NCBI RefSeq assembly: GCF_050920415.1
Contig: NZ_CP169309.1
Length of the DNA: 64,000 nt
Direction: 5' to 3' (one strand)
From: Escherichia coli
Lineage (GTDB): Bacteria; Pseudomonadota; Gammaproteobacteria; Enterobacterales; Enterobacteriaceae
Position 1 is the stretch's first letter. Each line of letters starts with the position of its first letter. This document shows positions 30,205-41,289 of the stretch, one piece after another. A program made the position numbers and the translations under genes. The notes under the pieces are model-generated. The model was not told where the DNA came from. It saw nothing but the letters and a program-made list of their open reading frames with translations, and ran no database searches.

Positions 30205-30507
30205 TTATTTTTTATTCTGATCGCGCAGCATCGCTTCACGTAAAATTGCGTTCAGGCGAGTTTGATAGCCTTTACCTGGTCGCTTCAACCATTCCATCAC
30301 ATCAGCATCAATACGCACCGAAGCCTGAGTTTTCAATGGCCGATAAAACTTACCGCGTTCTGCGTTAGACCATTGCTCATCGCTGGAAGGTGGGATATCA
30401 CTGTAATCAATATCTTCGTCGGATTTATTCGCCAGCGCCTTCAGTTCGGCCTCATGCTGCACATCGAGTGAAGAGGAGGTCCCTCGTTTATGTTTAACCA
30501 TGCTCAT
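30205..30507 (-). CDS. BrnA-like antitoxin (DUF4415/COG3514)
   Basis: 100 aa ORF; the C-terminal pattern YQTRLNAILREAML resembles BrnA-family antitoxins; its start overlaps the stop of a BrnT-like remnant. Confidence 0.6.
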   Translation of the reverse strand: MSMVKHKRGTSSSLDVQHEAELKALANKSDEDIDYSDIPPSSDEQWSNAERGKFYRPLKTQASVRIDADVMEWLKRPGKGYQTRLNAILREAMLRDQNKK

Positions 30508-30623
30508 AGCGGCTCCGTTCGTTGTGGCTCATCAAACACTAACACCGCATCTTCAAAGCGGATGCCATGTTTCACCCGATTACTTTTGGCCTTGTTTGCA
30601 TCCCATTCAAACTCCATTGGCAT
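30504..30623 (-). pseudogene. truncated BrnT-like toxin (DUF497) remnant, 39 codons
   Basis: My own translation of the minus strand gives MPMEFEWDANKAKSNRVKHGIRFEDAVLVFDEPQRTEPL*, which matches only the conserved N-terminus (FEWDxxKxxxNxxKHG..F..A..VF.DP) of roughly 90 aa BrnT toxins. Confidence 0.45.
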
Positions 30624-30819
30624 AGTTGCCATCCCCAATTGTATATACAAAAATGTATCTACAATCATTCTGCAATTATAGCGTTGATGTTGGAAATAGC
30701 ATCACGTTTTGGATAATCAACCATGAAATTGACAATGAGTGAGTTGGACTTGATTCATCCAATAGAATTTCTCGCCTGACATGGCACACTAAACACCTCG
30801 CTGTCGTTAAGGGATTACC

Positions 30820-31986
30820 GTGAAAAACTACAAAGTTATTACTCCGCTTTTTCCTACCTATGCGCAAGTTAAGGCTATGATGAAAGCCGTCTCAGGCTAT
30901 TCCCTGAAAGCGGTACGCAATATGATTACCGCCATTCACGAGCAAACCGGTACGCCGCAAAAACCCGTTGACTGGTCGGAACCTGACCTGTGGATCAGCG
31001 AACGCTTAACGGGTGAAGATGCCGACATCGCCCGTCGTATTTGGGATACCGATAATCACATATTGAACCCGCGCCACAGCTACGGCTGCTACTTATTTCT
31101 CAACTATCCTCAGTTTGAGCTGATGGAAAGCACGCCAGATGATACCTGGCAGCCCACCTCGCGCGGGCAAAAATTCCTGCAAGATGACGAAAAAACGCTG
31201 CGTTCACTGGACGACCAGGAAGGCATTCTGCAACTGCTTGAGCTGCTGGCTGGCCGGGAAATGTCGCGCCGCGCCGATTTATTGCCGGAATGGCAGGCCT
31301 TTTTGCATCAGCATTCGAAATTCGCGTCAGCAAGTTCAGTGAAAAGCACGCTCTACTCCCGTCTCTATAACCTTATCGACCGTGACATGGTTAACCGTGA
31401 AGGCATGAGCTATCGCATCACCGATACCGGGCGCGCCTGGCTTGGAAAAGCGTTGCCTGCACGAAAAAGCGATCCGCGTAAAGAGCTGTTGGAAGCGGTA
31501 AAACGCTATAACGAACAGCAAAAAGAGCTGCTGCGCGAACAAATCAGCACGATGAACCCGTACAAATTTGAGCAACTGGTTGGTCAATTACTGGAAGCAA
31601 TGGGCTACGAACAGGTTGAAGTGACCAAAGCCTCAGGCGACAAAGGTGTGGACGTGATTGGTCAGGTGCAGGTCGGCATCACCACTATTACCGAAGTGGT
31701 GCAGGTCAAAAGAATGCTGAACACTATCACTCGCCCGTATATCGACCAGTTGCGTGGGGCGTTGCCTTACCACAAAGCCATTCGCGGTACGCTCATCACC
31801 ACCGGGAAATTTGCGGCGAAATGTGCAGAAGCGGCGCTCTTTCCGGGTGCCGCGCCCATTACGCTTATCGACGGCGATCGTTTACTGGAACTGTTAATCG
31901 AAAATAACGTCGGCATTCGCCGCAGCAATGCAGTGGAATTGCTGGATGTAGATTTGCAGTTGTTTGATGAGCTGGAGATGGATTAA
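30820..31986 (+). CDS. Mrr-family (Mrr_cat, PD-(D/E)xK) restriction endonuclease with extended N-terminal region
   Basis: The C-terminal 150 aa carry an Mrr catalytic-domain pattern (GDKGVDVIG...EVVQVKR...ITTGKF); 388 aa in total; GTG start, exact start uncertain. Confidence 0.72.
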   Translation: MKNYKVITPLFPTYAQVKAMMKAVSGYSLKAVRNMITAIHEQTGTPQKPVDWSEPDLWISERLTGEDADIARRIWDTDNHILNPRHSYGCYLFLNYPQFELMESTPDDTWQPTSRGQKFLQDDEKTLRSLDDQEGILQLLELLAGREMSRRADLLPEWQAFLHQHSKFASASSVKSTLYSRLYNLIDRDMVNREGMSYRITDTGRAWLGKALPARKSDPRKELLEAVKRYNEQQKELLREQISTMNPYKFEQLVGQLLEAMGYEQVEVTKASGDKGVDVIGQVQVGITTITEVVQVKRMLNTITRPYIDQLRGALPYHKAIRGTLITTGKFAAKCAEAALFPGAAPITLIDGDRLLELLIENNVGIRRSNAVELLDVDLQLFDELEMD

Positions 31987-32049
31987 AGGGCGAAATCCGC
32001 CGCCTCAACCATTACAATAGCGACCCAATTTATCTGAACAGAGTTCATC

Positions 32050-38896: not shown

Positions 38897-38920
38897 CCCG
38901 GTAGCGCCAGTGCTACCGGG
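38897..38920. terminator. hairpin between convergent symE and the DUF262/DUF1524 gene (CCCGGTAGC-loop-GCTACCGGG)
   Basis: Read directly. Confidence 0.45.
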
Positions 38921-38934
38921 TATTATTCGCCACG

Positions 38935-41028
38935 TTATACCAACGCGCTCTCCATCTGTTTTTCAAATGCCTGACGGATTAATCCCATAATGTAAGGAAG
39001 TTGTGCGAGGTCGCTGAAACCAATTTCTACATCGCCATTGCCCCAGCGCCCAACATTTGTGACATCTTTGGCAATACCTTTCGGATCGACCAGTTCATGA
39101 AACTGCATATTAAGCGACAATCGCAGTCGGCTTTTTTGCGGCACAACATCAACAAAATTCGTTTCCGCTTTAAACGCAATATAGAGCTTCAATACTTCCT
39201 GCGTGATCCCTGCGTCCAGGCGCATAACTTCATCGCGAAGATGATCGAATAACACCCGGCTATGCGAACCATCAGCAAGAAAAGGATAATCACTCAGGCT
39301 GTAACTGGTTTTGTTCTCCGGCTGCGCCCGATAAACAGCTAAAACCTCTTCAGGAAGAGCAGGCGCTTGCCAGACCTGAACCGCGAGATCGGCCAGACGA
39401 TCGGCTCGGGCGTGAATGGCAGCTTCATCCCATTTTTCGCACTGTCCAAGACCGATATTCAAATAGAGCGGGCTATGTTTAAAGCCATCTTCAATATCGC
39501 GTTTTTCCGCGAAAGGTCTGTCACTGTAGCGGGAGTTATAGCGCGTTAATGTGAGATTCCCCAACGTATGCAACAGTTCTTTATGCACACGCTGCCAGTC
39601 GCTTCCCAGCTCTTCACGCCATTTAGCCGACAAATTTTCGTTCTGCGGCATAATGTGCTCAATCGTAAACTCTTCCACGCGCTCTCTGCGTTTATCGTTT
39701 TCCAGTCGTCGTAACCAGTAACTGCGACTGCGGAAGTTATAGAGATCGCGAACTTTTAATTCCCGTTTAAATTCATCATCGTTGGGGAAACGACGATATG
39801 AAGGTAGATTCAGAAAATGTACCTGAATACTTTCCAGATAATTTTCTTTATTAATAACTTTATAAAAAGTGGCAAACGTCTTGTTAAGAGAATTTGTCGG
39901 AATCGCACATACTGCACGGCGGAAAACATAAGATTCAATTGAACGAATTATGCTCAGGAAATCTTCGTGAGACAAATCGCCATTTTTATAGTCATGATAA
40001 AGCGCCAGTAAGAAAGGATACGCTACATCGACCTTTAACTCGCGCAAATCCTGAAAAGCCGTAGCAAGCGATTTGTCACTTTCTTTTCCCAATGCCATTG
40101 CACAGTAATACTCCGCGTAGATGTGAATATCTTCAACCAGCCGATCTACGCCTTTTTCAGCAACACTCTGGCTACGGGCATGTAGTTTAAATGCCTCATA
40201 GACTTCATCTGTCCGAGGGATCTCCCCCGTTTTTACCGTCAGATAATGACGCATAAAACTGTCAAAATATTCGCTGTAACCTTGCTGACCAAAAGCGACT
40301 TCCATTGGACGCCAGTGATCTTCATACAACCGGGTTTGATGCTCTGGTTCGAGGCCCATCAGGATAAAATTGCGCACCAGATCGGCCTGACTTAACGCCT
40401 TACCGGTGGAGTTCATACTTTCAAAAATCAGTTGCGGATTATCCTGGCCACGATTAAGTGCCACATCGACAATTAATAACTTTGCTAACCCACGACATAA
40501 GGGGATCAAGTCATCACCGAGTTTGGCAATTTGCTCATCAAAGAAAGTAAAGTTTTCCATTATTCGATGGGAATAGTTTTCTGGCATTGGTCTTTGTTTT
40601 ATTAACGCCAGTAGACTGTCTTTATCAGTCTCGGTCAGCAGTAATTTAAAACCTTTCTCGCCGGACTCATAAGGATTGAGCAAATAATAATTACGCAATT
40701 TCATTGCCGAAAAGCCATCAAAAACTTCGTCTTCGCCAAGATGGCGCGATAAAGCCTCAATCAGCAACATTGCGGTCGTCAGCCGCTGCTGACCATCAAT
40801 GACCAGCAACGGAGAAATACCAGAAACCTGATACAACCCCTGCTCAATATAAACAACCGAACCGATAAAATGCGCTGATATATCGTCACGCTTTCCGGCA
40901 CGAATGATGTCGTCCCAAAGTTGCCGACATTGTTGCCCGGTCCATGAATAGGTGCGTTGATAAATGGGAATAACAAACTGCTGCGAACGTTTTAAAAAAT
41001 CGAGTAGGCGAGCCTCTGTGGCTTTCAT
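38935..41028 (-). CDS. GmrSD-family type IV restriction enzyme-like protein (N-terminal DUF262 ParB-like NTPase, C-terminal DUF1524 His-Me nuclease)
   Basis: 697 aa; DGQQRLTT motif in the N-terminal third and an HNH-like motif (EHIMPQN) in the C-terminal third. Confidence 0.8.
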   Translation of the reverse strand: MKATEARLLDFLKRSQQFVIPIYQRTYSWTGQQCRQLWDDIIRAGKRDDISAHFIGSVVYIEQGLYQVSGISPLLVIDGQQRLTTAMLLIEALSRHLGEDEVFDGFSAMKLRNYYLLNPYESGEKGFKLLLTETDKDSLLALIKQRPMPENYSHRIMENFTFFDEQIAKLGDDLIPLCRGLAKLLIVDVALNRGQDNPQLIFESMNSTGKALSQADLVRNFILMGLEPEHQTRLYEDHWRPMEVAFGQQGYSEYFDSFMRHYLTVKTGEIPRTDEVYEAFKLHARSQSVAEKGVDRLVEDIHIYAEYYCAMALGKESDKSLATAFQDLRELKVDVAYPFLLALYHDYKNGDLSHEDFLSIIRSIESYVFRRAVCAIPTNSLNKTFATFYKVINKENYLESIQVHFLNLPSYRRFPNDDEFKRELKVRDLYNFRSRSYWLRRLENDKRRERVEEFTIEHIMPQNENLSAKWREELGSDWQRVHKELLHTLGNLTLTRYNSRYSDRPFAEKRDIEDGFKHSPLYLNIGLGQCEKWDEAAIHARADRLADLAVQVWQAPALPEEVLAVYRAQPENKTSYSLSDYPFLADGSHSRVLFDHLRDEVMRLDAGITQEVLKLYIAFKAETNFVDVVPQKSRLRLSLNMQFHELVDPKGIAKDVTNVGRWGNGDVEIGFSDLAQLPYIMGLIRQAFEKQMESALV

Positions 41029-41124
41029 CCTGGCGTCCTTCCGTGAAGCAATAATGACGCAATAATAACCACTTCCTTGTGAAGGTTATAGCGAAATCCG
41101 GTTTATCCGCGATGAATTGCCCCC

Positions 41125-41289
41125 TCACTCCACATCCTCCCTGCGTAACCCAATATCTCTCAACCGCTCATCACTCATCTGCTGTAACACGCGTCGGGTC
41201 TGCATTTGCCGCCGCCAACGCCTCACCGCCTGCCAGAGTTGCACCAGGCCGATAAACGGCGCTTTAGCTCTGTTTTCGTGAAATTCCAT
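41125..41289 (-). CDS. yjiS: small DUF1127 protein YjiS
   Basis: 54 aa ORF found by manual translation (MEFHENRAKAPFIGLVQLWQAVRRWRRQMQTRRVLQQMSDERLRDIGLRREDVE); below the length cutoff of the supplied ORF track. Confidence 0.65.
   Translation of the reverse strand: MEFHENRAKAPFIGLVQLWQAVRRWRRQMQTRRVLQQMSDERLRDIGLRREDVE

Follow-up and report, generated by a model that had tools for sequence, protein, structure and literature searches.

Between yjiA and yjiS on the chromosome of Escherichia coli MFDS1022581 (RefSeq assembly GCF_050920415.1, contig NZ_CP169309.1) lie brnA with a remnant of brnT, a gene for a 388-residue Mrr-like protein, a Type I restriction system in the order hsdM–hsdS–hsdR, the symR/symE pair and a gene for a 697-residue protein of the GmrSD family. 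Here we describe this segment within a 64,000-nucleotide window, the whole stretch of DNA analysed, which matches a chromosome record of the source strain (NZ_CP169399.1) at 100% identity and to which all coordinates refer. Open reading frames (ORFs) were taken from a mechanical listing with translation, the window was aligned at the nucleotide level with the corresponding K-12 region, and profile searches were made with Pfam, NCBIfam, PADLOC and Rfam. Every gene that an earlier note on this DNA had named is present where it was placed and is free of internal stops. We consider it very probable that the yjiA–yjiS segment represents an allele of the E. coli immigration control region (ICR), also termed defence hotspot 36, and that it is composed of two independently replaceable cassettes with the symR/symE block between them.

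The flanks are those of K-12. The GTPase gene yjiA (29215–30171, plus strand; RefSeq annotation; 97.5% identity to K-12) forms the conserved left anchor and yjiS (41125–41289, minus strand; 98% amino acid identity to K-12 YjiS) the right, in the annotated gene order btsT–yjiX–yjiA … yjiS–yjiR–rpn–mdtM–yjiN. Both yjiX–yjiA and yjiS–yjiR align to K-12 at 96.7–97.5%, with variable DNA in between, which bears out the proposal in the earlier note that the K-12 flanks enclose a different complement of genes. The alignment against K-12, part of what the note had recommended, fixes the boundaries of the cassettes: K-12 homology stops at 30171/30172, at the yjiA stop codon, returns only over 38416–38884, where the symR/symE block is 94% identical, and resumes at 41120, so that the breakpoints coincide with the ends of conserved genes. 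Because homology to K-12 inside the locus is confined to the symR/symE block, symE splits the locus into two variable slots. Cassette A (30172–38415) stands in place of K-12 mrr–hsdRMS and cassette B (38885–41119) in place of mcrBC–yjiV–yjiT.

At the left end of cassette A, between the convergent yjiA and brnA, a consensus scan picks out a G+C-rich hairpin (30183–30200; 7 G–C pairs) that is terminator-like and may act as such. The brnA gene (30205–30507, minus strand) is intact and encodes an antitoxin of 100 amino acids (aa; Pfam BrnA_antitoxin, 3e-17), with a ratio of nonsynonymous to synonymous substitution (dN/dS) of 0.11 relative to strain AR_0058. Its partner is a remnant (30504–30623, minus strand; a pseudogene in RefSeq): aligned with the intact 95-aa brnT of AR_0058, it has lost about 158 nucleotides (nt), keeping codons 1–35 before a frame shift into a short out-of-frame tail whose stop overlaps the brnA start. 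The BrnA-like antitoxin with a truncated BrnT described previously is therefore real, and, as no intact BrnT is encoded upstream of and overlapping brnA, the latter is here an orphan antitoxin gene and no functional BrnTA pair exists.

The next gene (30820–31986, plus strand) encodes a Mrr-family, Type IV-like nuclease of 388 aa with an Mrr_cat domain (Pfam, 4e-28) at residues 243–359; it is inverted relative to the flanks when compared with K-12 mrr, as had been reported. Residues D278, Q295 and K297 align with the catalytic motif of EcoKMrr, in keeping with the D…(Q/E)xK pattern of the family, and the N-terminus has a helical part and a winged helix, of which the winged helix is also a feature of Mrr proteins; an additional helical sub-domain seems to lie within the N-terminal 215 residues. 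PADLOC matches the protein to PDC-S02 (683 bits), a single-gene candidate and not a validated system, and a sequence search of solved structures returned no match. Homologues at 52–80% identity are found beside BREX genes (comparison locus L009), among housekeeping genes (L010) and convergent to a different Type I system (L011). Because they occur in such varied contexts, we regard the gene as an autonomous single-gene module and not as a Type I subunit. The nuclease would bind through its winged-helix N-terminus and cut, through a PD-QxK-type site, foreign DNA carrying methylation patterns foreign to the host.

The remainder of cassette A is a Type I system on the plus strand, in which profiles for all three subunits, an NPPF motif in HsdM and two variable blocks in hsdS are found together. 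The hsdM gene (32050–33669; 539 aa; PADLOC MTase_I, 638 bits) begins 63 bp after the Mrr-like gene and overlaps hsdS, which encodes the specificity subunit (33659–34975; 438 aa; PADLOC Specificity_I, 365 bits), by 11 nt. The restriction and translocase subunit is encoded by hsdR (35070–38372; 1100 aa; NCBIfam TIGR00348, 467 bits against a cut-off of 284.55; PADLOC REase_I, 1715 bits), which lies 94 nt 3′ of hsdS. In this last interval a consensus scan finds a hairpin followed by a T-rich tail (34984–35003, plus strand), a possible boundary between two transcription units; promoter and terminator sites in the scan were no more numerous than in shuffled sequence. Pairwise comparison with other strains gives a dN/dS of 0.016–0.043 for hsdM, hsdR (0.04), the Mrr-like gene and the whole 697-aa ORF, which indicates, for these genes and for brnA, strong purifying selection.

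HsdM has a GEFYTP motif (residue 185) and an ANPPFN motif (residue 287) and is unlike EcoKI HsdM, as the earlier note had maintained: identity is 25% to the EcoKI (Type IA) subunit and 27% to the EcoAI-family Type IB HsdM of O157. HsdR shows a weak local match to EcoKI HsdR only and none to the O157 Type IB HsdR, and in sequence searches of the Protein Data Bank HsdM scores higher against EcoR124 (Type IC) than against EcoKI. Since the system is neither IA nor IB by sequence and the Type I families reported at the ICR are limited to IA, IB and ID (PMC12707154), it is likely to belong to family ID, an assignment set by elimination alone. Its members are expected to have HsdM and HsdR highly similar to the family prototypes; within family IA, for comparison, UTI89 and K-12 are 99% identical. 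Further criteria for family ID are genetic complementation among its members and a spacing of 6 bp between the methylated adenines (PMC2481252; spacing table in PMC12707154). PMC10030836 places hsdMSR operons from elsewhere together with StySBLI.

The recognition blocks of hsdS (approximately 33680–34165 and 34430–34877) are variable, and only the conserved segments of the gene align to other strains, the layout typical of HsdS. Across 5,426 complete E. coli genomes, the set used for all population counts below, the full allele occurs in no other genome, and each half is found elsewhere separately: BY63, for example, shares just the first recognition domain and 1919D3 just the second. The allele thus combines the two domains in a way that is unique, and new, in that set. 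Such reassortment is the textbook route to new Type I specificities. The specificity of this strain is probably unrepresented among the 5,426 genomes and would affect which plasmids and phages enter. An HsdM2S1 complex would methylate a bipartite target that the pair of recognition domains in HsdS specifies, and HsdR would translocate and cut DNA lacking that methylation. At the 3′ end of hsdR (38330–38372) a 1-nt deletion removes the usual TAA stop and adds 13 codons that run into a hairpin resembling a repetitive extragenic palindrome (REP); the extension is private to the source strain among the genomes compared, and we expect it to have no functional effect.

In the conserved spacer between the cassettes, symE (38547–38888, plus strand; 113 aa; NCBIfam NF010128, 230 bits against a cut-off of 132) encodes a protein 95.6% identical to K-12 SymE. 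The antisense RNA antitoxin symR (38476–38552, minus strand; Rfam RF01809, full length, 93.1 bits against a threshold of 61) overlaps the symE start at 38547, the arrangement of the SymE/SymR type I toxin–antitoxin; the earlier note does not list this RNA. This pair is intact, unlike the brnT relic, and the earlier mention of toxin–antitoxin relics accordingly applies to brnT and not to symE/symR. Upstream of symE, a site of the form CTG-N10-CAG (38454–38469) resembles a LexA box by pattern match. As K-12 symE is under SOS control, the site may serve as a LexA box, and symE/symR would constitute an SOS-linked type I toxin–antitoxin pair.

Cassette B holds a single-chain Type IV enzyme belonging to the GmrSD family, with 697 aa (38935–41028, minus strand). 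Pfam finds GmrSD_N (DUF262; 4e-34, residues 9–222), GmrSD_C (DUF1524; 2e-26, residues 415–547) and, missed in the earlier note, DUF5655 as a third domain (residues 591–690), and the PADLOC Orf5 model matches residues 10–553 in a single stretch (740 bits, 542 of 543 positions). A DGQQR motif at residues 78–82, within the DUF262/ParB-like NTPase domain, and E457-H458 inside GmrSD_C, the His-Me/HNH nuclease domain, lie in the same chain. The PADLOC profile check suggested for this DNA hence gives strong matches for the three Type I subunits, for the Mrr-like protein (PDC-S02) and for the GmrSD-type protein, and both candidate nucleases, the 388-aa and the 697-aa proteins, keep their catalytic motifs. 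Neither K-12 McrB or McrC nor YjiT or YjiV matches the 697-aa protein, and no homology to McrBC, YjiT or YjiV was found in the locus, in agreement with the earlier description of symE next to a DUF262/DUF1524 protein with no McrBC. Among solved structures, sequence searches found as relatives only a 596-aa DUF262 protein (9jfl, 1e-12) and the N-terminal part of SspE.

RefSeq does not present this gene as one. Its annotation pipeline, PGAP, renders the 697-aa ORF as a 387-aa coding sequence, starting at the internal Met311, plus a DUF262 ‘pseudogene’, and does so in all nine records inspected (the source strain plus gene copies in comparison loci L002, L004–L006 and L014–L017). In seven of the nine the 2,094-nt ORF is uninterrupted (the source strain, 536, STEC1575, KE55, USMARC-51408, DLI.5a and OkiPb01690); it is truly broken in the other two, by a 1-nt deletion at codon 269 in O157:H7 8368 and by two indels in NCTC9040. 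The split is an artefact, because the ORF is continuous, one profile spans it, full-length homologues exist and its dN/dS is 0.03–0.04; on the same grounds we reject the chimaera or pseudogene that the RefSeq entries imply. We infer that the split annotation was seeded by the O157:H7 fragments. Clustered at 90% identity, the protein falls in a group of 3,852 sequences, and Gammaproteobacteria, Kiritimatiella and cyanobacteria have homologues of about 700 aa that are at least 70% identical and show these three Pfam domains as well. Plasmids from cyanobacteria and Rhodobacterales, and one record of an Anaerosphaera phage, also encode relatives over the whole protein. As RefSeq fragments the gene in every record inspected, it may be under-counted or misclassified in surveys built on RefSeq proteins, and the practical value of the correction is that the error concerns a cassette present in approximately 24% of complete E. 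coli genomes.

The enzyme would combine the ParB-like NTPase, the His-Me/HNH nuclease and the DUF5655 domain and would cut hypermodified phage DNA, such as DNA containing hydroxymethylcytosine or glucosyl-hydroxymethylcytosine. In PMC12373910, Supplementary Data 6 assigns the gene's RefSeq fragments and close relatives (WP_001304006, WP_096925719, WP_072002093 and AGB79837) to CLS_001, the first-numbered GmrSD cluster; according to that study, representatives of its 15 GmrSD system groups, one from CLS_001 among them, were synthesised and tried on T-even phages. DUF5655 is predicted to have a YjbR/YdhG-like fold and resembles, less strongly, the C-terminal domain with which MotA of phage T4 binds DNA. 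That DUF5655 is a dedicated sensor for a DNA modification other than the glucosyl-hydroxymethylcytosine of classical GmrSD is conceivable, although we think it unlikely; were this so, the most common enterobacterial GmrSD cluster would be a mechanistically distinct Type IV subclass. This domain and the long N-terminus of the Mrr-like protein are uncharacterised and make good targets for work on substrate specificity.

The two cassettes are distributed separately in the population. Cassette A, from brnA to hsdM at a coverage of at least 80%, is present in 802 of the 5,426 genomes, and the brnA/brnT segment alone has matches in 2,159; cassette B is present in 1,286, and the hsdR–symE–GmrSD junction, which requires both, in 36. 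The usual neighbour of cassette B is a Type IB system accompanied by another DUF262 gene (O157:H7, 536 and STEC1575), cassette A lies beside an empty right slot in AR_0058, and brnAT occurs without any restriction genes in F5505-C1. Together with K-12 and 2013C-4282, these strains display five different contents at the same site, as expected of an ICR cassette locus and of the defence hot-spot with cassette-like turnover that the earlier note had proposed and that is already published.

In O157:H7 and 536, the left cassette with the Type IB system contains a second, different DUF262/HNH gene beside yjiA (L004, 2791–4442; L005, 2838–4490). Its product shares 24% identity with the 697-aa protein, and PMC12373910 puts the gene in CLS_005. 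Because this gene is present alongside cassette B, the island of these strains has a pair of GmrSD-family genes, and each of the pair is annotated in O157:H7 8368 as two adjacent coding sequences.

Only four other complete genomes are at least 99% identical to the source strain over core genes at window positions 1–5000, most being 95–99% identical, and on the core-gene evidence, drawn from window positions 1–5000 and 41120–46000, the strain is from a rare, seldom-sequenced lineage. The divergence of approximately 3% from most E. coli is equally seen in core genes 25–30 kb away and so reflects the rare lineage and not an effect of the locus; hyper-divergence specific to the ICR is rejected on that ground. 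Even between close relatives the content of the right slot differs, since 2013C-4282, one of these four genomes and the closest to the strain by core genes, carries mcrBC, a full-length yjiV and yjiT there. In that genome (L018; NZ_CP027579.1, 2854000–2868500) the full-length YjiV is a DEAD/DEAH helicase of 2114 aa and YjiT has 1096 aa; the K-12 counterparts are a yjiV pseudogene and a YjiT of only 505 aa.

Several of these results weigh against the reading of the locus as a functional ICR allele with freely exchangeable cassettes. Were the cassettes independent, about 190 genomes would be expected to carry both, and the 36 observed represent an approximately five-fold deficit, which may reflect lineage structure rather than free exchange. 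HsdM scores 170 with NCBIfam TIGR00497, below the curated cut-off of 242.75, the 13-residue C-terminal extension of HsdR is unusual, and the Mrr-like protein has a secondary match to Pfam NA-iREase1, a family of ‘inactive’ nucleases (9e-13), although this is far weaker than the match to Mrr_cat. The last point also feeds an account, suggested by RefSeq, in which both Type IV genes are decayed remnants and only the Type I system is functional. The splitting of the GmrSD gene by PGAP, the real frameshifts in O157:H7 8368 and NCTC9040, the insertion sequence (IS) insertions near the gene in several strains and the true decay of brnT in the cassette of the Mrr-like gene would all suit such an account. 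The GmrSD ORF is nevertheless uninterrupted here and in six other strains inspected, one PADLOC model spans its residues 10–553, the DGQQR and E-H motifs of GmrSD and the D…QxK motif of the Mrr-like protein are kept, and neither the dN/dS of 0.03–0.04 nor the 3,852-sequence cluster, with its homologues of about 700 aa across phyla, is what decay would leave; we regard general loss of the Type IV genes as very improbable.

That the Mrr-like gene is tied to hsdMSR in a single obligate system of four genes, its product being a Type I subunit or regulator, strikes us as very improbable. The gene does share a strand with hsdM at a distance of 63 bp, the adjacency is constant across the 802 cassette-bearing genomes, and each Type I family at the ICR is accompanied by its own Type IV gene (PMC12707154). 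Its homologues at 52–80% identity, however, lack an adjacent co-oriented hsdMSR, and it is these contexts of distant homologues that led us to reject obligate coupling; PADLOC, moreover, treats the protein as a single-gene candidate, and K-12 Mrr is known to act alone. To an integrated mobile element, in which an integrase or transposase would move the region as a genomic island, we assign a probability close to negligible. Such an island might be suspected from a G+C content that falls to 0.38–0.43 in hsdS, towards the 3′ end of hsdR and within stretches of the GmrSD gene, from the IS1 and IS421 copies at the locus in other strains and from a gene for a recombination-promoting nuclease of the Rpn family 2 kb to the right. 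A site-specific mobile element is rejected because no integrase or transposase is annotated in 30172–41119 and neither a tRNA gene nor flanking direct or inverted repeats were found; in addition, the breakpoints fall at conserved gene ends, and, in contrast to hotspot 37, no anchor of the ICR provides a mobilising activity (PMC12707154). A single ICR allele with two replaceable cassettes thus remains the reading that we favour.

On this reading, homologous recombination within the conserved flanking genes yjiA, symE and yjiS would swap the cassettes, with no integrase involved, a route that fits the missing tRNA gene, flanking repeats and annotated integrase or transposase. The proteins of such an allele would provide layered restriction, in which the Type I system would catch unmodified DNA and the two Type IV enzymes modified DNA. 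Which genes, domains and motifs the locus holds, that they are intact, where its breakpoints lie and how often the cassettes occur are observations, and the enzyme specificities, the transcription units and the route of recombination are inferences.

Other features of the window lie outside the cassettes. The Rpn-family gene (43120–44076, minus strand; RefSeq annotation; 318 aa) is intact, stands two genes or about 2 kb to the right of the island and has a frameshifted counterpart in O157:H7 8368; rpn is counted among the toxin–antitoxin modules of the ICR (PMC12707154). To the left, the btsT–yjiX spacer (28874–29000) cannot be aligned to that of K-12 and is approximately 80 nt longer. Farther out, about 16 kb of catabolic and transport genes (10365–26719) separate tsr from btsT, which are adjacent in K-12 and AR_0058; these genes encode, among others, a MurR/RpiR regulator, an Na:solute symporter, RidA, an N-acyl-D-amino-acid deacylase, an amino-acid deaminase, an APC permease, an aldehyde dehydrogenase, a 4-hydroxyproline epimerase and FAD oxidoreductases. 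In its right part, the window contains genes for an EspX-like pentapeptide-repeat protein and for the inverse autotransporter iatD (49727–51784 and 54342–59582).

Much of this setting is known. According to the summaries in PMC2481252 and PMC3874165, Sibley & Raleigh 2004 established that the segment from yjiA to yjiS varies in a cassette-like manner. He et al. 2015 described ICRs in which McrBC is absent and homologues of GmrSD accompany the Type I, Mrr, endoribonuclease and GTPase genes, with strain 536 among their examples (PMC4437046), and a 2025 EcoSal Plus review treats the locus as hotspot 36, lists its parts as Type IA, IB and ID systems, Mrr, McrBC and GmrSD enzymes and the brnAT, symE–symR and rpn modules, and gives their frequencies across Enterobacteriaceae (PMC12707154). 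The suggestion that the combination as a unit might be undescribed does not survive, its parts being in PMC12707154 and PMC4437046 and the junction in 36 of the 5,426 genomes. The literature already covers the locus, the behaviour of its cassettes and every one of its gene families, the present mix being rarer but described, and as a discovery the locus matters little. What is new is modest: the unique hsdS allele, the RefSeq annotation error in the GmrSD gene, and structural hints for two uncharacterised domains, among them the long N-terminus of the PDC-S02-type Mrr protein.

The individual proteins can be set beside known systems. EcoKMrr shares with the Mrr-like protein a winged-helix N-terminus and an Mrr_cat domain with D…QxK, but has 304 aa, 84 fewer than the 388 here; the 30% identity between the two covers the C-terminal ~170 residues only, and the N-terminal 215 residues have no detectable similarity. 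With the GmrSD family (CT596 GmrSD, Eco94GmrSD and BrxU), the 697-aa protein has in common a DUF262 domain with DGQQR and a DUF1524 His-Me nuclease in a single chain, whereas the extra C-terminal DUF5655 is a feature of the present protein. With family ID (StySBLI, EcoR9I and KpnAI) the Type I system shares its allelic position at the ICR.

At the level of the whole locus, the K-12 ICR (mrr, EcoKI hsdRMS, symE, mcrBC and yjiV/yjiT) has the same flanks and symE/symR block, at 94–98% identity, and both alleles pair one Type I system with methyl-dependent enzymes. They differ in that hsd genes are ordered M-S-R here and R-M-S in K-12, so that gene order is not that of K-12; in that mrr converges on yjiA in K-12 and the Mrr-like gene is oppositely oriented here; and in that brnA/brnT is present here and a GmrSD-family gene replaces McrBC/YjiTV. 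From the ICR, or hotspot 36, as defined by Sibley & Raleigh 2004 and PMC12707154, there is no categorical difference: the site and its anchors (yjiA, symE, yjiS, yjiR, rpn, mdtM and yjiN) are the same, as are the classes of content (hsd, Mrr-family, GmrSD-family, brnAT and symE/symR) and the pattern of replacement. The present allele is distinguished within that locus by its truncated brnT, its unique hsdS allele and the rare pairing of an M-S-R cassette with a CLS_001 GmrSD gene.

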